Below, in pieces: positions 25,695 through 63,160 of a DNA stretch of 64,000 bases. Location of the stretch: contig NC_086097.1 of the NCBI RefSeq assembly GCF_963921235.1, positions 17,298,001 through 17,362,000 of the forward strand. The letters run 5' to 3'. Numbering within the stretch: the first letter of the stretch is position 1; each line of letters begins with the position of its first letter. This DNA is from Mobula hypostoma. Lineage: Eukaryota. The translations under genes were made by a program, and so were the position numbers. The notes under the pieces are model-generated. The model had not been told where the DNA came from and searched no databases. It worked only from the letters and a program-made list of their open reading frames with translations.

Positions 25695-26207
25695 ACACAC
25701 ACAAAATGCTGGAGGGATTCAGCAGGCTAGGCAGCATCTATGGAAAAGAGTGCCGTTGACATTTCGGAGGAAAAAAACGAGGAATAGATTTTAAAGGTTG
25801 GGAGGAAGGGAGGGAGAAACACGAGGTGATATGTGAAACTGGGAGGGGCGGAGGAAGTAAAGAGCTGGGAAGTTGATTGGTGAAAGAGTCAGAGGGCTGG
25901 AGAAGGGGGAGTCTAATAGGAAGGCTATGGAAGAAAGAAAAGGGGGGGGGGCAAAGAGCACCAGAGAAGGGTGATGGGCAGGCAAGGAGATGAGCTGAAA
26001 GAGAGTGGGGAATGGTGAAGGTGGGGGGCATTACCAGAAGTTCGAGAAATTGATGTTCGTGCCATCAGGTTGGAGGCTACCCAGATGGAATATAAGATGT
26101 TGTTCCTCCAACTTGAGAGTGGCCTCACCACAACAGTAGAGCAGGCCATGGACTGACATGTCAGAATAGGAATGGGAGGTGGAATTAAAATGGATGGCCA
26201 CTGGGAG
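25695..26207 (-). mobile_element. Penelope-like element 3' part (GIY-YIG C-terminus plus tail)
   Basis: PVAIHFNSTSHSYSDMSVHGLLYCCGEATLKLEEQHLIFHLGSLQPDGTNINFSNF (ORF 26031..26279); inverted tail copy at 28856-28957. Confidence 0.85.
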
Positions 26208-28850
26208 ACATAGAAACATAGAAACATAGAAAATAGGTGCAGGAGTAGGCCATTCGGCCCTTCGAGCCTGCACCGCCATTTATTATGATCATGGCTGATC
26301 ATCCAACTCAGAACCCAGCCTTCCCTCCATACCCCCTGACCCCTGTAGCCACAAGGGCCATATCTAACTTCCTTTTAAACATAGCTAATGAACTGGCCTC
26401 AACAGTTTGCTGTGGCAGAGAATTCCACAGATTCACCACTCTCTGTGTGAAGAAGTTTTTCCTAACCTCGGTCCTAAAAGGCTTCCCCTCTATCCTCAAA
26501 CTGTGACCCCTCGTTCTAGACCTCCCCAACATCGGGAACAATCTTCCTGCATCTAGCCTGTCCAATCCCTTTAGGATCTTATACGTTTCAATCAGATCCC
26601 CCCTCAATCTTCTAAATTCCAACGAGTACAAGGTCTTTCTTCATATGAAAGACCTGCCATCCCAGGAATCAATCTGGTGAACCTTCTTTGTACTCCCTCT
26701 ATGGCAAAGATGTCTTTCCTCAGATTAGGGGACCAAAACTGCACACAATACTCCAGGTGTGGTCTCACCAAGGCCTTGTACAACTGCAGTAGTACCTCCC
26801 TGCTCCTGTACTCGAATCCTCTCGCTATAAATGCCAGCATACCGTTCGCCTTTTTCACCGCCTGCTGTACCTGCATGCCCACTTTCAATGACTGGTGTAT
26901 AATGACACCCAGGTCTCGTTGCACCTCCCCTTTTCCTAATCGGCCACCATTCAGATAATAATCTGTTTTCCTATTTTTGCCACCAAAGTGGATAACTTCA
27001 CATTTATCCACATTAAATTGCATCTGCCATGAGTTTGCCCACTCACCCAACCTATCCAAGTCACCCTGCATCCTCTTAGCATCCTCCTCACTGCTAACAC
27101 TGCCACCCAGCTTCGTGTCATCCGCAAACTTGGAGATGCTGCATTTAATTCCCTCATCCAAGTCATTAATATATATTGTAAACAACTGGGGTCCCAGCAC
27201 TGAGCCTTGCGGTACCCCACTAGTCACCGCCTGCCATTCTGAAAAGGTCCCGTTTATTCCCACTCTTTGCTTCCTGTCTGCTAACCAATTCTCCACCCAC
27301 ACCAATACCTTACCCCCAATACCGTGTGCTTTAAGTTTGCACACTAATCTCCTATGTGGGACCTTGTCAAAAGCCTTTTGAAAATCCAAATATACCACAT
27401 CCACTGGTTCTCCCCTATCCACTCTACTAGTTACATCCTCAAAAAATTCTATGAGATTCGTCAGACATGATTTTCCTTTCACAAATCCATGCTGACTTTG
27501 TCCGATCATTTCACCGCTTTCCAAATGTGCTGTTATCACATCCTTGATAACTGACTCCAGCAGTTTCCCCACCACCGACGTTAGGCTAACCGGCCTATAA
27601 TTCCCCGGTTTCTCTCTCCCTCCTTTTTTAAAAAGTGGGGTTACATTAGCCACCCTCCAATCCTCAGGAACTAGTCCAGAATCTAACGAGTTTTGAAAAA
27701 TTATCACTAATGCATCCACTATTTCTTGGGCCACTTCCTTAAGCACTCTGGGATGCAGACCATCTGGCCCTGGGGATTTATCTGCCTTCAATCCCTTCAA
27801 TTTACCTAACACCACTTCCCTACTAACATGTATTTCGCTCAGTTCCTCCATCTCACTGGACCCTCTGTCCCTTACTATTTCTGGAAGATTATTTATGTCC
27901 TCCTTAGTGAAGACAGAACCAAAGTAATTATTCAATTGGTCTGCCATGTCCTTGCTCCCCATAATCAATTCACCTGTTTCTGTTTGCAGGGGACCTACAT
28001 TTGTCTTTATCAGTCTTTTCCTTTTTACATATCTATAAAAGCTTTTACAGTCCGTTTTTATGTTCTCTGCCAGTTTTCTCTCATAATCTTTTTTCCCCTT
28101 CCTAATTAAGCCCTTTGTCCTCCTCTGCTGAACTCTGAATTTCTCCCAGTCCTCAGGTGAGCCACTTTCTCTGGCTAATTTGTATGCTACTTCTTTGGAA
28201 TTGATACTATCCCTAATTTCTCTTGTCAGCCACGGGTGCACTACCTTCCTTGATTTATTCTTTTGCCAAACTGGGATGAACAATTGTTGTAGTTCATCCA
28301 TGCAACCTTTAAATGCCTGCCATTGCATATCCACCGTCAATCCTTGAAGTGTCATTTGCCAGTCTATCTTAGCTAATTCATGTCTCATACCTTCAAAGTT
28401 ACCCCTCTTTAAGTTCAGAACCTTTGTTTCTGAATTAACTACGTCACTCTCCATGTTAATGAAGAATTCCACCATATTATGGTCACTCTTACCCAAGGGG
28501 CCTCTCACGACAAGATCGCTAATTAACCCTTCCTCATTGCTCAAAACCCAGTCCAGAATAGCCTGCTCTCTAGTCGGTTCCTCGACATGTTGGTTCAAAA
28601 AACCATCCCGCATACATTCCAAGAAATCCTCTTCCTCAGCACCTTTACCAATTTGGTTCACCCAGTCTACATGTAGATTGAAGTCACCCATTATAACTGC
28701 TGTTCCTTTATTGCACACATTTCTAATTTCCTGTTTAATACCATCTCCGACCTCACTACTACTGTTAGGTGGCCTGTACACAACTCCCACCAGCGTCTTC
28801 TGCCCCTTAGTGTTACGCAGCTCTACCCATATCGATTCCACATCTTCCCG
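26208..28850 (-). mobile_element. young 5'-truncated CR1 LINE (partial APE endonuclease plus complete RT)
   Basis: Uninterrupted frame within ORF 26604..28982: VYRPP, MGDFN, SDH, YRPVSLTS, YLDFQKAFD, GVPQGSVLGP, KFADD; 13-bp deletion near 26632 shifts the C-terminus to ORF 26308..26631; (TTTCTATG)n tail. Confidence 0.97.
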
Positions 28851-30045: not shown

Positions 30046-30660
30046 ATTAACACAAGAGATTCTGCAGATGCTGGAAATCCAGAGGCACACATAAAAATCT
30101 GGAAGAACTCAGCAGGTCAGGCAGCATCTATGGATGAGCATATGTAGTCAATGTTTCAGGCCAAGACCCCGCACCATGAGAAGGAATTTGTGGGGAATCT
30201 GTGGAAGTCTTTGCCACAGATGGCTATGGAGGCCAAGTCATTGAATTTATTTAATGTGGAGGTTGATAGGTTTTTGATTAGTATTGGCATCAAACGTTAC
30301 GGAGAGAAGGCAGGAGTATGTGTTGAGAGGGAAAATAAATCAGTCATAATGGAATGGCAGGACAGACTCAATGGGCTGAATGGCCTTTTCTGTTCCACTA
30401 TCTTATGGACATAAGGACTGGAAAAGAAGGGGGAAGAAGCAAGAATAATATGGTGTTGGAGGGGAAGGAGTAGCAGCAGAGATCATGGAGGGGGGGCAGT
30501 GAGGGGGGGTCTCACTGTCGAAGAAAATATTTGAACTTCTTCAGGGTAGGCATCCCCCAAAGAGACTTTGCAGTGGAGCTGCAAGTCGTAAATATGAGAT
30601 TCTGAAGATGCTGGAAATCCAGAACAACACCCACAAAAAGCTGGAAGAACTCAGCAGGAC
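30046..30660 (-). mobile_element. PLE tail fragments with an inserted CR1 3' end (30171-30410, plus strand)
   Basis: AACACAAGAGATTCTGCAGATGCTGG...TTTCAGGCCAAGACCC | CR1 | ATAAGGACTGGAAAAG. Confidence 0.75.
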
Positions 30661-33665: not shown

Positions 33666-34320
33666 GACCACATAGGTTTTCCTCAAGTGCTCTAGTATCC
33701 TCATATGTGCCATCAGGTTGGAGGCTACCCAGGCGGAATATAAGGTGTTATATCCCATTCCCATTCTGACATGTCTATCCACGGCCTCCTCTACTGTACG
33801 CCAGAGAAAGCAGGATCTCCCAGTGGTCACACATTTTAATTCCACATCCCATTCCCATTCTGACATGTCTATCCATGGCCTCCTCTACTGTACGCCAGAG
33901 AAACCAGGATCTCCCAGTGGCCACACATTTTAATTCCACATCCCATTCCAATTCTGACATGTCTATCCACGGTCTCCTCTACTGTAAAGATGAAGCCACA
34001 CTCAGGTTGGAGGAACAACACCTTATATTCCGTCTGGGTAGCCTCCAAGCTGATGGCATGAACATTGACTTCTCTAACTTCTGCTACTGCCCCACCTCCC
34101 CCTCGTACCCCATCCATTATTTGTTTTTATACACACATTCTTTCTCTCACTCTCCTTTTTCTCCCTCTGTCCCTCTGACTATACCCCTTGTCCATCCTCT
34201 GGGTTCCCACCCCCCCCCCCGTTTCCTTCTCCCTGGGCCTCCTGTCCCATGATCCTCTCATACCCCTTTGCCAATCACCTGTCCAGCTCTTGGCACCATC
34301 CCTCCCCCTCCTGTCTTCTC

Positions 34321-36802
34321 CTAGATTGGGTGAACCAAATTGGTAAAGGTGCTGAGGAAGAGGATTTCTTGGAATGCATGCGAGATGGTTTTTGAACCAA
34401 CATGTCGAGGAACCAACTAGAGAGCAGGCTATTCTAGACTGGGTTTTGAGCAATGAGGAAGGGTTAATTAGCAATCTTGTCGTAAGAGGCCCCATGGGTA
34501 AGAGTGACCATAATATGGTGGAATTCTTCATTAAGATGGAGAGTGACATAGTTAATTCAGAAACAAAGGTTCTAAACTTAAAGAGGGGTAACTTTGAAGG
34601 TATGAGACGTGAATTAGCTAAGATAGACTGGCAAATGACACTTAAAGGATTGACGGTGGATATGCAATAGCAAGCATTTAAAGATTGCATGGATGAACTA
34701 CAACAATTGTTCATCCCAGTTTGGCAAAAGAATAAATCAAGGAAGGTAGTGCACCCGTGGCTGACAAGAGAAATTAGGGATAGTATCAATTCCAAAGAAG
34801 AAGCATACAAATTAGCCAGAAAAAGTGGCTCACCTGAGGACTGGGAGAAATTCAGAGTTCAGCAGAGGAGGACAAAGGGCTTAATTAGGAAGGGGAAAAA
34901 AGATTATGAGAGAAAACTGGCAGGGAACATAAAAACTGACTGTAAAAGCTTTTATAGATATGTAAAAAGGAAAAGACTGGTAAAGACAAATGTAGGTCCC
35001 CTACAGACAGAAACAGGTGAATTGATTATGGGGAGCAAGGATATGGCAGACCAATTGAATAATTACTTTGGTTCTGTCTTCACTAAGGAGGACATAAATA
35101 ATCTTCCAGAAATAGTAGGGGACAGAGGGTCCAGTGAGATGGAGGAACTGAGCGAAATACATGTTAGTAGGGAAGTGGTGTTAGGTAAATTGAAGGGATT
35201 GAAGGCAGATAAATCCTCAGGGCCAGATGGTCTGCATCCCAGAGTGCTTAAGGAAGTAGCACAAGAAATAGTGGATGCATTAGTGATAATTTTTCAAAAC
35301 TCGTTAGATTCTGGACTAGTTCCTGAGGATTGGAGGGTGGCTAATGTAACCCCACTTTTTAAAAAAGGAGGGAGAGAGAAACCGGGGAATTATAGACTGG
35401 TTAGCCTAACGTAGGTGGTGGGGAAACTGCTGGAGTCAGTTATCAAAGATGTGATAACAGCACATTTGAAAAGCGGTGAAGTCATCGGACAAAGTCAGCA
35501 TGGATTTGTGAAAGGAAAATCATGTCTGATGAATCTCATAGAATTTTTTGAGGATGTAACTAGTAGAGTGGATAGGGGAGAACCAATGGATGTGGTATAT
35601 TTGGATTTTCAAAAGGCTTTTGACAAGGTCCCACACAGGAGATTAGTGTGCAAACTTAAAGCACATGGTATTGGGGGTAAGGTATTGATGTGGATAGAGA
35701 ATTGGTTAGCAGACAGGAAGCAAAGAGTGGGAATAAACGGGACCTTTTCAGAATGGCAGGCGGTGACTAGTGGGGTACCGCAAGGCTCAGTGCTGGGACC
35801 CCAGTTGTTTACAATATATATTAATGACTTGGATGAGGGAATTAAATGCAGCATCTCCAAGTTTGCGGATGACACGAAGCTGGGCGGCAGTGTTAGCTGT
35901 GAGGAGGATGCTAAGCGGGTGCAGGGTGACTTGGATAGGTTGGATGAGTGGGCAAATTCATGGCAGATGCAATTTAATGTGGATAAATGTGAAGTTATCC
36001 ACTTTGGTGGCAAAAATAGGAAAACAGATTATTATCTGAATGGTGGCAGATTAGGAAAAGGGGAGGTGCAACGAGACCTGGGTGGGTGTCATTATACACC
36101 AGTCATTGAAAGTGGGCATGCAGGTACAGCAGGCGGTGAAAAAGGCGAATGGTATGCTGGCATTTATAGCGAGAGGATTCGAGTACAGGAGCAGGGAGGT
36201 ACTACTGCAGTTGTACAAGGCCTTGGTGAGACCACACCTGGAGTATTGTGTGCAGTTTTGGTCCCCTAATCTGAGGAAAAACATCCTTGCCATAGAGTGA
36301 GTACAAAGAAGGTTCACCAGATTGATTCCTGGGATGGCAGGACTTTCATATGAAGGAAGACTGGATGAACTAGGCTTGTACTCGTTGGAATTTAGAAGAT
36401 TGAGGGGGGATCTGATTGAAACGTATAAAATCCTAAAGGGATTGGACAGGCTAGATGCAGGAAGATTGTTCCCGATGTTGGGGAAGTCCAGAATGAGGGG
36501 TCACAGTTTGAGGATAAGGGGGAAGCCTTTTAGGACTGAGATTAGGAAAAACTTCTTCACACAGAGAGTGATGAATCTGTGGAATTCTCTGCCACAGGAA
36601 ACAGTTGAGGCCAGTTCATTGGCTATATTTAAGAGGGAGTTAGATATGCTCTTGTGGCTACGGGGATCAGGGGGTATGGAGGGAAGGCTGGTGCAGGGTT
36701 CTGAGTTGGATGATCAGCCATGATCATAATAAATGGCGGTGCAGGCTCAAAGGGCCGAATAGCCTACTACTGCACCTATTTTCTATGTTTCTATGTTTCT
36801 AT
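34321..36802 (+). mobile_element. young 5'-truncated CR1 LINE with disabled ORF2
   Basis: ORFs 34374..34670, 34689..35414, 35415..36269, 36082..36300 and 36322..36723 are nearly identical to the 26208-28850 copy; stops at 34668, 35412 and 36298, frameshift near 36082. Confidence 0.97.
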
Positions 36803-36862
36803 CATTTTGGATCTCCCCCTCACCCTCCCACTTTCAAATCTCTTACTAACTTTCCTTCAGTT

Positions 36863-36898
36863 AGTCCTGACGAAGGGTCTCGGACTGAAACGTCGACC
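36863..36898 (+). ncRNA. minimal hammerhead ribozyme motif (PLE-associated)
   Basis: AGTC-CTGACGA-AGGGTCTCGGACT-GAAAC-GTC-GACC; core intact, stems I and II each carry a mismatch. Confidence 0.6.
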
Positions 36899-37817
36899 GT
36901 ACCTCTTCCTAGAGATGCTGCCTGGCCTGCTGCGTTCACCAGCAACTTTGATGTGTGTTGCTTTATTAGTAGGTTAACTGGTGACTATAAATTACCCCTA
37001 GGGCAGGTGAGTGGTGGAAGGATTATAGTGGGAGATGGAAGGGAGTTGTTTATGGAGATCACATGGAAGATATTAATTATGGACACTGAAGGACTTGTTC
37101 CTATGTGTTGTGGCACCATGGCTACATATTTTCAAGACATTGGTCAGTGACACATAAACGTTCTGAAGGAATTCACTGACCTCAAATGCTGATTCTGTCT
37201 CCTGTCTCTCCATCCACAGTTGCTGCCAGATCTGCTAAGTATTTCCAGCAACGTTGTTTTTAATTCTCCATCTGAAGCGTAGCAGAACAATGAAGCTCGC
37301 TGTTGCAAATGGTAATTCATTCCAAGTTAATTGCTAATTTAAAATATGTGATTCGTAGAATTTTATTAACTTAAAGACATGATGTAGGGCTAGGGAATGC
37401 AAACAAGTCATGATCTCCTTGTATGGGAGAACAGAAGAAGGGGCTCCTTGCAATAAGTGGCTTATTCTCATTCCAGTTCTTCTGTGGTAATACTTACCAT
37501 TGAGGATGAGTTTCTTTCATGTTTTAAAAATATTCAAGCAGGAGTGTTATGGCACGATATTTGCTTCAATTTGCTACAGTATGTTCCAAAGTAGGTGTTT
37601 TGAATAAAATTTGATCAGGCCTCAAAGTTTCCTCCATCAGGATGTATGAAGTAACACATACGAAATATTGGAGGAACTCAGCAGGTCAGGCAACATCCAT
37701 GGAAATGAATAAACAGTCAATGTTTCAGGCTGAGACACTTCATCAGTACTCAGGACCCAATAATGTGTGTGTGTTACTCTGGATTTCCAGCATCTGCAGA
37801 AACTCTTGTGTTCAAGG

Positions 37818-41078: not shown

Positions 41079-41202
41079 AAGTATACTGTATATGCTGGTC
41101 CATGGAGTTGTAGAAATCCCCAGAATGCCTGGATCTTTATTCTGAAAGCTTGCTTTTTACTTTACTTAGCCAAGTAGTTGATATTGAGTGCTATGAGTAT
41201 AT

Positions 41203-41330
41203 TGACGAAGGGTCTCGGCCTTAAACGTCGACTGTACCTCTTCCTAGAGATGCTGCCTGGCCTGCTGCGTTCACCAGCAACTTTGATGTGTGTTGCTTGA
41301 ATTTCCAGCATCTGCAGTATTCCTGTTGTT
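41203..41330 (+). mobile_element. young PLE tail starting inside the hammerhead core
   Basis: TGACGAAGGGTCTCGGCCTTAAACGTCGACTG..., nearly identical to 36868-36962. Confidence 0.85.
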
Positions 41331-41547
41331 TGAGTATATTTTGTTTGTTTATGTATAGTTTTCATAAATTCTATTGTAGTTCTTTATATTCCAGTGAATG
41401 CCTGCAAGAGATTGAATCTCAAGGTAGTACTGTATATAGTAACATAAATACTTTGATAATAAATTTTACTTAGTTTCAATTTAGACGTTCTTAAATTTCA
41501 TAATCTATTTATCACTTAGAATCTGTATCTATTTTCAGTCAGGTAGC

Positions 41548-50189: not shown

Positions 50190-51080
50190 TCTCTGGCCCA
50201 ACTCATCCATGTGTACCAAGGTGCCTTCCTGAGCTTATTCATTTGCCTTTTCATGTCCCTCTAAACCATCCTTATCCGTTCCCACCCAAAAGTCGTTTAA
50301 ACATAGTAAATATACGTATCTGCCTCTATTATTTCCTCTGCAATGTGCTCTATATACATACCACAGTCTGTAGAAATGGTGTCCCTCAAGTTCCCATTAA
50401 ATTTTCCCCCTCATTATAAACCTATGCCCTCTAGCTTTAGACTCCCCAGTCTGCGAAAAATACGGTGACAATTTTTTTAGCTATGATTGTCATGATTATA
50501 TAAATCTCTTTAATGTCACCCTTCAGCCTCTTGCACTAAATGAAAAACAGTCCTAGCCTAACCAAGCTTTCCTTATAACTCAAACCATCCATTCCCAGCA
50601 ACATCCATGTGAACAACAGGAATTCTGCAGATGCTGGAAATTCAAGCAACACACATCAAAGTTGCTGGTGAACGCAGCAGGCCAGGCAGCATCTGTAGGA
50701 AGAGGTGCAGTCGACGTTTCAGGCCGAGACCCTTCCTGACGAAGGGTCTCGGCATGAAACGTCGACTGCACCTCTTCCTACAGATGCTGCCTGGCCTGCT
50801 GCGTTCACCAGCAACTTTGATGTGTGTTGCTTGAACATCCATGTGAATCCTTTTTGTATCCCCTCCTGCTTAATCATATCTTTCCTGTAATATGGTACCA
50901 GGATTGCACAAAATATTCCGGTTGAATTTCCAGAAACGTCGTGTACAGTTGTAACATGGCTTCCCAACTCTTGTACTCAGTTTCTTAGTTTATAAAGGAA
51001 AGTGAACCCTACACCTTGATTGAACATCTGGCTGTTTTTCTCCTACCAGGGGACTACGTAATTGTATCACTTAATCTCTT
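50190..51080 (-). mobile_element. old CR1 3' fragment hosting the hairpin insert
   Basis: Antisense ILVPYYRKDMIKQEGIQKGFTWM. Confidence 0.75.
50614..50835. mobile_element. fold-back (hairpin) PLE-tail insertion
   Basis: Arms 50641-50735 and 50741-50835 are reverse complements at 94/95 positions; loop CTGAC; 14-bp TSD AACATCCATGTGAA (50600-13 / 50834-47). Confidence 0.95.
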
Positions 51081-51501
51081 GGTTCTACGAAGCTTCCCAG
51101 GCCCTTGGATGGAGAAGGGATCAGTACATAGGAGGCTATGTATCTCTGTGTTGCACCACCGAGTGCTTCCCTGCCCTCAAAATGACCCAGTCCTAGTACT
51201 CATGCAAGAATTTGACCTCTCAGTTCCCTTCAACTGAGTGAGATTGTGCACTCTGGCTGCCATTTTTCAGGATAAGTGTCTTGGAATTGGGAGAGGTCAA
51301 TGAAGAGGAATATTTCAAGCCGCAAGACACTCTCACTTTGAAAATGATACCTTAAAGTTATGAACTTTCATGCCCGGTGAAGAATTATCTCTCTCTCTCT
51401 CACTCTCACGCACACAACCACTACAACCTCCCCCACTCACGCCCAACTTTGTCTAAATTTCACTCACTTCCATTGTTAGGAGAGTTGGGTACTCCTCAAG
51501 G

Positions 51502-51747
51502 CAACACACATACAATACGCAGCCGGCCCGGCAGCATCTATGGAAAAGAGTACAGTTGACATTTCAGGTTGAGACCCTTCATTAGGACTGGGTGAACCAG
51601 GACTGGGAGACTCAGTCCTGATGCAGGGTCTTGACCCAAAACGTCGACTGTTTACTCTTTTCCATAGATGCTGCCTGGCCTGCTGTGTTCCTCCAGCATT
51701 CTGTATGCATTACTTTGGATTTGCAGCATCCGCAGATGTTCTTAGTT
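51502..51747. mobile_element. older fold-back PLE-tail insertion
   Basis: Minus-strand tail to CCCTTCATTAGGACTG, a short spacer, then plus-strand CAGTCCTGATGCAGGGTCTTGACCCAAAACGTCGACTG tail. Confidence 0.8.
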
Positions 51748-53967
51748 AGTCCTCAACGTTTTTTCTCTTTTTGCTCTACTTATTTAACATTATATATATC
51801 TTGCTGTAATTTACAATAATGATAATGTTTTTATTGTTATGTATTGCAATGTATCTGCTGCATATCCATAAATTTTATGACATATGCCAATTATATTAAA
51901 CCTGATTCTGATTCTGAACATTGCTATCATTGAGAGTCCACTTATCTGTCTGGCTAGTAGAGATATCTTCCTCTTTTGGCTTCCCAGCACCCCGCAGCTG
52001 TGATATGCTGATCTAGAAGTTCATTCCAATAATATTTTAAGTGTGATTACAAGTTATTGTTTATTCGTTCTTCCCAGAGCTAAATGTTATTAAGACAATT
52101 TGTGGATCACTCTGCATCATTCTGGGAAACTCAACTGGACACTTCATGGGATGAGTCATTCTTACACCCGATATGTTTTCCTTGCAGGGTACATGAAGTG
52201 AAATCTTTGTCAGTGCTATGTTCATTTTGTGTCTTTGCAGGGTGGGATCATTAAGACCCCATCTTCAAACTCCTGACCCCCCCCCCTAAGTGTATAGGGT
52301 TGTAGCCTCTGACCTCACAATCCCACTAGATTCAACTCCATAGCTCAGTACTCACTTTTCCAACACAAGAACCCTACCATCCCTGAGACCCAGTCCTCTA
52401 TCTTCCAATCTTGCCCTCTCCCCTCCTACGATTCTCTGAAGCACAGCTTCTGCAGAACAAAAAAACAGAGATGTTATTTTCCTTAGCCAAAACCAGTAAC
52501 AAGTGTTCCAACTAACTCATCACAGAACTTCTGCCACTCACAATAAATGTTTTATAGTTGTGGGAGGTGTGAGAAAATCTGCGATGTTCCTTATTCAGAG
52601 ACTATTTATAACTAAAGGTTCCAATGGCCATACGGGAGGAATACAAAAGTTCACATTGATTTACAAGTTAATGGATGGCAGACCGAAGTGCTGACAGTGA
52701 CTGCTTTTCAATAAGCCTTTTACATTCTACGCCCTAAACTACAAGAGAACTGTTGAGCCTTTGTTGTAGGGGAAGAGCCTCCATATTGTCTGCAGACTTC
52801 TGCAACTGCTATTCTTCATCCTGTGAACTTCAATCTTATCATTGATTTAGAGGATCAAAATTCAAAAATGCACTCTCTGAAGTTACTTTTATTTTCATTT
52901 TTCAGTTAAACTTTGAATTTTTTTCTTTTCTCTTTCGTGACATTTTTTTGCTCACTTTGCTGAATAGACTGAACTGCGTCAATAGTCCTCATAGCCTAAT
53001 GCTAGACAAAATCCTGAACTGCCTGGCTCGTCAGTCACTTGGGGGAATCATTATTTAGCAGTTGAGCAGGAGTTACAGGAGAGACATCAGCAATGGGAGA
53101 GCTGGATAGCATTCTCTCCCCGATCCAAAAATACTGACAATTTCAGAACAATTTCATTTCAGGAAACATAACCCAGAAGGACAGAATATCTCTGGGGTTT
53201 GTGTTTCCTTCAGCCAAGTACACATCAGGAAAGGACTGACTGAGGCACATAAACCTTTCTGCGAGCTCATCAATGCTCCTGTGTGACCAGTCAGATTCTG
53301 ATGAAATATTTTGCTTTTCTAAGGCAAAGGCTCAGTGAATGATTGGTGAACATTAAATTACTTGGGCCAATAAATTTAATTAACAACCCAATTTAGGATC
53401 TCTTTAGTCTTGTGTCCAACACTCAACCCAGTGAATTACTGCAGTGTCAATAACCAAAGAACAGGAGTATTGATGCTTCTTTTAATCTTTCATTGTCTTT
53501 GTCCAGGGCTAGAGGAGTCATAAAAGACACATACACTGGGTGGGTCAGCAGTAAAACATGCCAACTTTTCTATGTGGGATGATTTTCAAAGCAGTTTGAC
53601 AGCTGGAATACCAAGAAGGGACAGATGGAGAAAGGCATCAGGGAGGCTGGAGCGAAAAAATTGGAGCATGGGAAATCATCCAGAACCAAGAGAGTCATTG
53701 TCCTTCGATCAAGAAATGATTTGGAGTGTTGCATGCCTTCAGAATCCTGGAGGTGAGATAGAATAATTCACTACAAAGAGAAAATGAAAAATAATTAAAA
53801 CATCAGCAATGGTGTAATGGTCCCTGAATTGAATGTGGTAACTTGGCCAGACATAGAAAAACATATCACTTTTATCTGCAGAAGTTTCTGTAGTCCAACT
53901 TATAAAGCTGTTTTTTTAAACATAGATTTTTTTTAAAAGCTAGATCTCTTCCCCTTCTTCAATTATT

Positions 53968-54535
53968 AACGCAGAAAAGGTTTACAAAGATGCCGCCTGG
54001 TTTAGAAGGCAGGTGCTATCATGAGAGCTGGACAAACCGGGTCTGCGCCCTATGGAACAGTGGAGGCTGAGGGGAGATCTGATAGAGGCTAACAAGATCA
54101 TGAGAGGTACAGACAGAGTAGACAGAGATTATCTGCTCCCCAGGGTAGAAATCTCCAGGGGATGTGAGGTGTGAATTTTTTACTCAGAGTCTTGGATGTC
54201 TGGAATGCACTGTCTGGTATGGTGGTAGAGGCAAATACGTTAGAGGTTTTTAAGAGACGTTTAGATAAGCACATGAATATGTGGAAGATGGAGGTATATG
54301 GACATACTGTTCAAATTCCTTACTCACTCTTCCTTCAGTTAGTCCTGACGAAGGGTCTCGGCCTGAAACGTCGACTGCACCTCTTCCTACAGATGCTGCC
54401 TGGCCTGCTGCGTTCACCAGCAACTTTGATGTGTGTTGCTGGGATTAGTTTTAGTTCTTTTAATATACTTTTTAGCTGATTCAGCACAATGTTGTGGGTT
54501 AAAGGGCCTGTTCCTTTGTTGTACTGTTCTATGAT
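53968..54535 (+). mobile_element. old CR1 3' end, interrupted by a young PLE tail (54311-54440)
   Basis: RRLRGDLIEANKIMRG...VWNALSGMVVEA; CR1 UTR resumes GGGATTAGTTTTAG. Confidence 0.8.
54341..54376 (+). ncRNA. minimal hammerhead ribozyme motif (best-preserved copy)
   Basis: AGTC-CTGACGA-AGG GTCTCGG CCT-GAAAC-GTC-GACT; stem I AGTC/GACT, stem II AGG/CCT, predicted cleavage after C54372. Confidence 0.7.
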
Positions 54536-61999: not shown

Positions 62000-63160
62000 T
62001 GTATTATCCCTCTCAACCCCATTCTCCTGCCTTATGCCTGCAATCTCTGATGCCCTTACTAATCAAGAACCAATCAAGCTCTGCTTTAAATATACCCAGT
62101 GACTTGGCTTCCAGAGCCCCTTGTGGTGATGAATTCCACAAATTCAGCATCTTCTGGCTGAAGAAATTCCTCCACAGCCCTGTTCTAAAGGAATGTCCTT
62201 CTGTTCTGAGGCTGAGCCCTCTAATCCAAGCTCTCCCACTGTAGGAAACATCCTTTCCACATCCACTCGATCTAGGCCTTACAATATTCAATAGTTTCAA
62301 TGAGATCCCCCCTCATTCTTCTAAACTCCAAAAAGTGCAGGCCTAGAAATGTCAAACGATCCTATTACCCTTTTGTTCCTGGGATCATTCTCATGAACCT
62401 CCTCTGGATGCTCTCCTATACCAGCAAATACTGTCTTGTATGAGGGGTCCAGAATTGCTCACAATACTCCGTGCTGTCTGACCAATGCCTTATAAAGCCT
62501 CAACATTACATCCTTGTTTTTATATTCGTCCTCTCAAAATGAAAGCTTTGTCATGGCAGTAGAAGAGACCATGGACTGACATGTCAGAATGGGAAAGATC
62601 ATGGCTTCCTTTACTGCGTCAATAAGGCCACACTCATTTGGGAGGAGCAACACCTTATATTCCATTGAGATGGCCTCCAATCTGATGGCATGAACATCGA
62701 TTTCTCAAACTTCTGGTAATGCTTCCTGCCCCCCCCCCCCTTTACAGTTCCCCATTCCTGTTTCCCTCTCTCACCTTATCTCCTTACCTGCCCATCACCA
62801 CCCTCTGTTGCTTATTCTGACTTCTTCCCCCTTCCTTTTCAGTTCTGATGAAGAGTATCAGCCCGAAACGTCAACTGATTATTCCCATCCACAGATACTG
62901 CCTGACCTGCTGGACTACTCCACTCCTCCAGCACACTATGTGTATTCTACCTTCCACTTCTTAGCTCATTCTCCTAATCTAGATCCTTCTGCGGTCTTCC
63001 TGCTCGCTCAACACTACCTGCACCTATCTTCTTATCATCTGCAAGTGTAGCCACAACATCATCAATTTTGTCTTCCAAATCATTGACATATAACGTGAAA
63101 AGAAGTGGCCCCTATGCTGACCCCTTCGGAACACCACTAGTCACCAGCAATCAACCAGAA
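62000..63160 (-). mobile_element. CR1 fragment split by a PLE
   Basis: GLSLRTEGHSFRT...FFSQKMLNLWNS (62013..62300); antisense VTSGVPKGSA at about 63110-63150. Confidence 0.85.
62549..62935 (+). mobile_element. Penelope-like 3' fragment with short 5' inversion and hammerhead-like motif
   Basis: EEQHLIFH*DGLQSDGMNIDFSNFW*; 62549-62597 is inverted; TCAGTT-CTGATGA-...-GAAAC-GTC-AACTGA at 62839-62878. Confidence 0.85.

Follow-up and report, generated by a model that had tools for sequence, protein, structure and literature searches.

Penelope-like elements (PLEs) have been described in an inverted form in which 5'-truncated pLTRs lie head to head, with palindromes at the junctions and TSDs of 8–10 bp (PMC3846280, PMC8557442), and in which one inverted pLTR may carry an optional 31-bp tail (PMC3846280); for endonuclease-bearing PLE insertions in general, an optional tail of 30–40 bp at one end is characteristic. 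In the available parts of these reports, Pen2a_Av and Pen2_Av from Adineta vaga share with the insert described here the head-to-head inverted pLTRs, the truncated inner end, the palindrome, the tail on one arm, the flanking TSD and the insertion into another retroelement. The insert differs in keeping only the last ~100 pLTR bases on each side, which gives a near-perfect hairpin, in its TSD of 14 bp (8–10 bp in the rotifer examples) and in its cartilaginous-fish-like host genome. For PAc, a Poseidon element of Anolis carolinensis, the accessible account has the PLE protein nicking and extending both strands and starting reverse transcription at two adjacent sites, the spacing of which gives the tail (PMC11167929). 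Common to PAc and the insert are two 3' ends about 30 nt apart, their position about 95–125 nt downstream of the hammerhead, the use of both strands and an uncut template; the clade probably differs, the homologues found here having the Cys-rich linker given as a Neptune/Nematis mark (PMC8557442). Metazoan PLEs also carry minimal hammerheads (min-HHRs) with CUGANGA, a bulged base, a 4-bp stem II, GAAAC-GUC and no helix III, pairs of which have already been noted on opposite strands 100–700 bp apart (PMC4209133); the family studied here shares this anatomy, with a 5-bp stem I in one of its copies (copy C), whereas the motif of the insert is truncated and mutated and has its core on one strand only. 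Non-LTR retrozymes (bioRxiv 10.64898/2026.07.22.740005) are likewise non-coding, pLTR-derived, hammerhead-bearing repeats, but those in the text available are head-to-tail tandems with a complete HHR in each unit; the insert keeps the one-sided tail and head-to-head arms typical of PLEs, and neither of its arms holds a complete motif.

The window is the whole 64-kb stretch of DNA that was analyzed. Its sequence contains two arms (50641–50735 and 50741–50835) that form 94 complementary pairs over 95 positions, with the sole mismatch at 50722/50754 and a CTGAC loop between them at 50736–50740. A perfect 14-mer pair, the TSD, encloses 220 bp (50614–50833), and the final 2 nt of the right arm sit within the right TSD. 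The initial annotation had reported the 95-bp arms, their 94/95 match, the loop, the 220-bp insert and the 14-bp duplication, all of which we reproduced; to these we add a 27-nt 3' 'tail' of the element, present on the left arm only and unpaired with the right arm (29 nt including the TSD overlap). The tail matches that of copy B with a score of 58, compared with 10 for the right arm, and its 27 nt also match an extension on copy B and five older copies. The insert is thus composed of two 5'-truncated pLTR ends arranged head to head (Table 1, where arm starts are counted from the first C of the hammerhead core as 0). Its left arm is identical to copy C across the 91 nt compared, and both arms carry the same subfamily variants, only one private base differing between them. 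The 2-nt TC/GA at the inner junction fits either arm, and 2-nt overlaps between primer end and element are found at the outer junctions (AA at 50612–13 and 50834–35). We conclude that the insert is real, a tidy instance of an insertion form already familiar from PLEs, here pared down to the bare minimum. An origin as a product of aborted PLE integration had been suggested; a by-product of PLE integration it is, but not an aborted one, as a TSD on both sides marks a completed insertion of the known inverted, 5'-truncated form.

Table 1. Coordinates of the insert, its host and the related copies in the 64-kb window
Feature	Position	Strand	Remarks
Left TSD, 14 bp	50600..50613		last 2 nt also match element beyond tail
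PLE 3' 'tail', 27 nt	50614..50640	-	match to copy B tail 41300-41330
Left arm, 5'-truncated pLTR end, antisense	50641..50735	-	begins at core +5 to +7, without CUGAC
TC/GA microhomology, 2 nt	50734..50735		head-to-head junction
Broken minimal hammerhead	50736..50768	+	core, stem II, GAAACGTC, stem I 3' strand
Right arm, 5'-truncated pLTR end, sense	50736..50835	+	starts at -2 to 0; no tail; 2-nt TSD overlap
Right TSD, 14 bp	50834..50847
Decayed CR1-type LINE, ORF2 C-terminal region, host	50403..51017	-	limits approximate
Copy B, one tailed arm, 10-bp TSD	41194..41340	+	5' end at core +1/+2
Copy C, intact min-HHR, 5-bp stem I	54310..54440	+	5' end about -35
Copy D, read as one long copy	33753..36963	+	continuity inferred via copy J; GIY-YIG ORF end and 3' region 33753-34323, inserted LINE about 34324-36802, pLTR end 36803-36963
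Copy J, older, GIY-YIG C-terminus through hammerhead motif	62600..62912	+	continuous
Copy E, older, two-armed	51490..51756		tail on right arm only; 10-bp TSD with 1 mismatch
Copy I, older, two-armed	37646..37812		long arm starts at -4, no tail

The flanks of the insert translate on the minus strand as a LINE ORF2 C-terminus, whose frame continues across the site after one TSD copy is discounted (…KGFTWM / FTWMLLGMDGLSYKE…). They match the RT-bearing LINE of the window, with tblastn at E 1.3e-6 and with blastn at 60.8% over 176 nt, in which RVT_1 was found in the neighboring ORF. The description of the host as an old CR1 is borne out to the extent of a CR1-type LINE remnant, the clade name being a tentative one, based on sequence motifs and an 8-nt tandem 3' tail rather than on a phylogeny. 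Between 50570 and 50606 there are joints that run backwards and loose ends, and these look like CR1-type sequence, tandem or inverted, that derives from elsewhere in the genome. A Pfam search of the 139 non-repeat stop-to-stop frames of at least 62 aa in the window returned no families. Such a search overlooks short exons and long introns, and it is no proof that the site is intergenic.

Judged by sequence, each arm represents the 3' end of an endonuclease-bearing (EN+) PLE. They are 95–100% identical to the young copies B (41203–41330), C and D (end 36963), and copy J, which runs unbroken from a peptide matching the end of the copy D ORF fragment into the hammerhead motif, ties them to a GIY-YIG end; their original assignment to Penelope terminal sequence is upheld. 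A search with the copy J peptide identified 7 proteins among 15 candidates, six of them from rays (Mobula, Hypanus). Four of the seven gave Pfam GIY-YIG matches at E 0.0005–0.002, below the curated cut-off, and the GIY-YIG fragment of the window itself gave no Pfam match; a full PLE ORF is absent from the window. The four homologues examined show an RT motif (YIDD) and, visible in P0001, P0002, P0003 and P0005, a Cys-rich linker between RT and GIY-YIG. Because a Zn-finger-like or Cys-rich RT–EN linker is given as the mark of Neptune/Nematis PLEs in the part of PMC8557442 available, the element is probably Neptune-like.

The family is very abundant, with 74,254 contigs of sequencing run X1 aligned to 50250–51200; summed contig depth was not taken as a copy number. 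We counted 18 arms in the 64 kb, many of them older and read by hand from decayed copies. Copy B has its 5' end within about 2 nt of the start of the sense arm of the insert and a similar 2-nt overlap at its 3' junction, and its GAAAC box reads TAAAC. A TSD was sought for copy C and was not found. Copy D bears at its 5' end a short inverted piece (33708–33749 matching 34017–34058) and a roughly 94-bp tandem duplication within the GIY-YIG coding end. Copy F (30048–30507) appears to be a PLE arm of greater length into which a LINE fragment (30190–30420) intrudes close to the core, the upstream part of the arm lying at 30410–30507. A pair of LINEs, 26210–28669 (minus strand) and 34322–36802 (plus strand), is 95.9% identical over 2483 bp, inverted and 5.6 kb apart, and each member abuts a PLE GIY-YIG-end fragment (25957–26208 and 33753–34323); both LINEs may have inserted into PLE sequence, or the pair may have arisen by rearrangement. 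Two further copies are two-armed: in copy E both arms begin at the stem I edge with a spacer between them, and in copy I a very short arm (about +85) bears the tail, the TSD of this copy being a weak 6/7 candidate. The copy E spacer is about 20 nt long and holds a repeated GGACTGGG word; this copy lies 650 bp from the insert.

We consider it probable that the insert records one retrotransposition event of an EN+ PLE, in which two 5'-truncated 3'-end copies came to lie head to head as two cDNAs made from opposite strands. Both target strands would have been nicked, 14 bp apart, and each nick would have primed its own short cDNA, the top-strand primer starting at the distal RT start, which would leave a tail, and the bottom-strand primer at the proximal RT start, which would leave none. 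Both cDNAs would then have grown to about 95–125 nt, halted at the hammerhead's 5' edge and annealed through the 2-nt TC/GA, with host repair filling and sealing the product, a dead copy that would be neither a mobile unit nor a ribozyme. We propose that the insert is nearly symmetrical because both cDNAs stopped at a favored stop region. L1 twin priming resembles this scheme in using two opposite-strand primers and in leaving a microhomology-joined inversion with a TSD, but there the cDNAs copy different parts of one RNA, whereas the arms of the insert cover the same segment, so that two templates or two passes would be needed. The two-primer model itself was drawn from in vitro work on the Poseidon element, and the accessible part of that report neither demonstrates formation of an inverted product nor maps points of 5' truncation (PMC11167929).

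The distribution of tails bears on this scheme. All three two-armed copies in the window (the insert, E and I) have a tail on one arm only, and in both copies with unequal inner ends (the insert and I) the tail is on the axis-shorter arm. The alternative that survives best, although we regard it as unlikely, is self-priming, in which one cDNA or an antisense template folds back on the TC/GA around CTGAC and the tail is later trimmed. The antisense template for self-priming was reportedly proposed by Arkhipova et al. The natural TC-CTGAC-GA already provides a 2-bp stem and a 5-nt loop for folding back, the minus strand of the insert reads as the snap-back product, and the near-identity of the arms, which differ at a single private base as fold-back on one template would also give, speaks against two primers. 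In the accessible texts, junction palindromes are taken as self-priming in PMC3846280 and the tail is ascribed to endonuclease-mediated resolution in PMC8557442. However, the letters of the loop come from the right arm, which has no tail; under self-priming this arm would have been made first, but the arm copied from it contains 27 nt that it lacks. Copy I has the same polarity, and in both copies the tail sits on the axis-shorter arm, which simple folding back of the tail-less arm cannot yield. The 2-bp stem would also be very weak, and each outer junction has a primer-like overlap of 2 nt with the element. Trimming of the tail during resolution could rescue self-priming.

The initial annotation had also raised the possibility that the insert is a non-autonomous hairpin mini-element, mobilized by PLEs and always turning at the same axis, which is at odds with the scatter of junctions and which we consider very unlikely. 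The junction of the insert occurs once in the 64-kb window, and the 16 other arms end elsewhere. Among 15 of 510 joints, chosen by support and taken from a compilation that never reports the reference's own junction, there were 14 different left-arm ends (50633–50694), and the right sides fell at 50734 (nine), 50736 (one) and 50781–50804 (five), several joints having 1–5 letters that fit either side. As the joint ends are scattered, typical two-armed copies appear to be lopsided and to turn in many places. Pattern searches gave no matches in viral_contigs or metagenome_contigs; in genome_contigs the hairpin pattern matched 78 loci that share at most 19 nt with the arm, and these were set aside as chance prokaryotic hairpins. 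The insert does retain the cis region and the tail, and some other junctions recur in X1 at depths of 65–95, compared with about 12–13 for single-copy flanks (50655-G-50734 reaches 95.5), so that its own junction may recur too. Independent recurrence would nevertheless be expected from the abundance of the family together with a favored stop, and a 95-bp RNA duplex would bury the protein-bound region, to judge from the predicted fold and the available part of PMC11167929. It is possible that the junction of the insert has a few twins without any self-mobility.

The inner ends may have a bias of their own. In the set of 12 other short arms, which leaves out the two arms of the insert and four long copies (D, F, J and K), five have their starts between −5 and +9 (B, the two arms of E, the left arm of I, and O). 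The binomial P is 0.001–0.006 for an interval fixed by the insert and 0.06–0.16 for a cluster anywhere, values that depend on ends read by hand from decayed copies and in which the two arms of copy E are one event. The count of 50734 joints is inflated, as all starts at −2 or a little upstream of it fall together there, the reference beginning at that point; the in-between letters (G, TAG) of such joints place some of the starts inside stem I. Clustering of the 5' ends at the 5' edge of the motif, rather than at the cut site, is therefore suggestive only. On a tentative reading, which we hold possible but rather doubtful, the 5' hammerhead edge (about −6 to +7) and not the cleavage site is a preferred cDNA end, so that the axis would not be accidental; with the same reserve, the obstacle might be a folded or protein-bound barrier, or simply a discrete RNA 5' end. 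A literature search, which had most subscription papers outside its reach, returned nothing on 5' ends clustering at a PLE hammerhead or on ray members of this PLE family.

The hammerhead letters are readable on one strand. The plus strand alone reads CTGACGA...GAAACGTC, the minus strand having GTCAG at the place of the core, and both CUGANGA and GAAAC-GUH of the min-HHR core are thus found on the plus strand only. The core occupies 50736–50742, the loop being its first 5 nt, and is followed by the bulged A. Stem II (50744–50755) has a G-A mismatch at its second pair; position 50754 is a private C-to-A change, the family having C in 2.24M of 2.29M depth in X1. GAAACGTC lies at 50756–50763, and cleavage is predicted after 50763; this is 27 nt downstream of the first base of the core, and we therefore rejected the idea that the axis is the cleavage site. 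On the 3' strand of stem I (50764–50768), two of five partners remain as contiguous pairs, compared with five in copy C, so that neither helix I (4–5 bp) nor helix II of a min-HHR is preserved. Copy C, by comparison, has the core, the bulged A, a 4-bp stem II, GAAACGUC and a 5-bp stem I, which is the published min-HHR anatomy. Rfam gave no matches at the gathering score over the 64 kb, and at E <= 10 on the intact copy C gave three weak unrelated matches and no hammerhead family; the motif call accordingly relies on the published min-HHR features. Because the head-to-head turn removes most of stem I, no working ribozyme is predicted to be left in the insert. The description of a hammerhead core at the inversion axis is right in its letters, on the plus strand, and in placing the axis at the start of the core, but the motif is broken and buried in the duplex. 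Both arms run through the predicted cut site, which implies that the template was uncut RNA; RNA cleavage was dispensable in the PAc assay as given in the available text (PMC11167929).

Two features around the core were also observed. The young subfamily has CTGACGA where older copies have CTGATGA, so that ACG (50739–50741) replaces an ATG (62848–62850) where stem II begins; the PAc ORF begins at stem II (PMC11167929, in the part available). Just before the core there is a splice-acceptor-like pyrimidine run ending in CAG or TTAG (54330–54344, 36850–36866 and 62825–62844), and in Drosophila virilis Penelope an intron ends at helix I (PMC4209133, in the part available). The conservation of this AG proves nothing, because it also belongs to stem I.

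The hairpin as a whole is predicted to be very stable (−210.7 kcal/mol, z = −27, equaled by none of 200 shuffles), and the earlier claim that a transcript would form long dsRNA stands as a fold prediction. This stability and the presence of the insert in two species are what would speak for a functional RNA retained by the host, either as a ribozyme switch or as a source of dsRNA or siRNA, an explanation that we find extremely improbable: stem I keeps 2/5 pairs, stem II has the G-A mismatch and pair probabilities below 1e-18 within the full hairpin fold, and the insert sits in a dead LINE. The single arm mismatch matches the expectation of neutral decay (2.1 expected, P(<=1) = 0.38); gene conversion or selection keeping the arms alike was considered and is not needed, one mismatch fitting neutral drift.

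Contigs from four of 23 sequencing runs were aligned to 50250–51200; two of the runs, X1 and X2, are one sample, possibly the source of the window itself, and do not provide independent support. In organism C, the more distant of two related species compared, a 408-bp contig joins 50324–50599 to 50834–50965, an empty site with one copy of the 14-mer, and differs from the window by 6.1% substitutions (25/408). In the closer organism B, where the flanks differ by about 2.2% substitutions (17/776), the sequence on the left continues as antisense tail up to 50636, and on the right the sense arm, present from 50812, leads into the flank. This is a single, real insertion with a genuine TSD: the empty site in C and the outer junctions in B establish the duplication and the inverted layout in a second species. 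For the left TSD the evidence is the single copy in the organism C contig and the family contigs, which end at 50612. Most simply, the insertion would date to between two species splits, after that of C and before that of B; precise loss in organism C is possible, but less simple. Of the 'single recent insertion' originally proposed, 'single' is confirmed by the TSD and the empty site in C, and 'recent' applies in a relative sense only, given the outer junctions in B. The X1 and X2 contigs contain the right junction without differences, and in the small listed subset of contig pieces none spans the axis with 31 letters on each side, so that the exact 5-nt loop is read from the window sequence itself. 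That the palindrome is a false one produced by assembly is hardly conceivable, for although no listed contig spans the axis and the listed same-species pieces show the right junction and not the left, the flanks in organism B run into antisense tail and sense arm, a layout possible only with inverted arms; a private base and the tail also set the two arms apart, and an empty site exists.

As a locus, this dead copy of a very abundant repeat matters little. Its value is as a clean fossil of PLE integration, a process still not worked out, with an empty site, a one-sided tail, an overlap of 2 nt at each of its three junctions and a date between splits. If both target-primed cDNAs did stop at the motif edge, the result would be a near-perfect 200-bp hairpin; the ribozyme motif would act as a length gauge for PLE insertions, the genome would be seeded with many dsRNA-forming inverted repeats, and fossils of this kind would offer a direct genomic test of the two-primer, dimer-based integration model. 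Tail polarity across many copies would decide between two-primer synthesis and self-priming, and if clustering at the edge holds across the genome, the PLE hammerhead would have a function distinct from cleavage.
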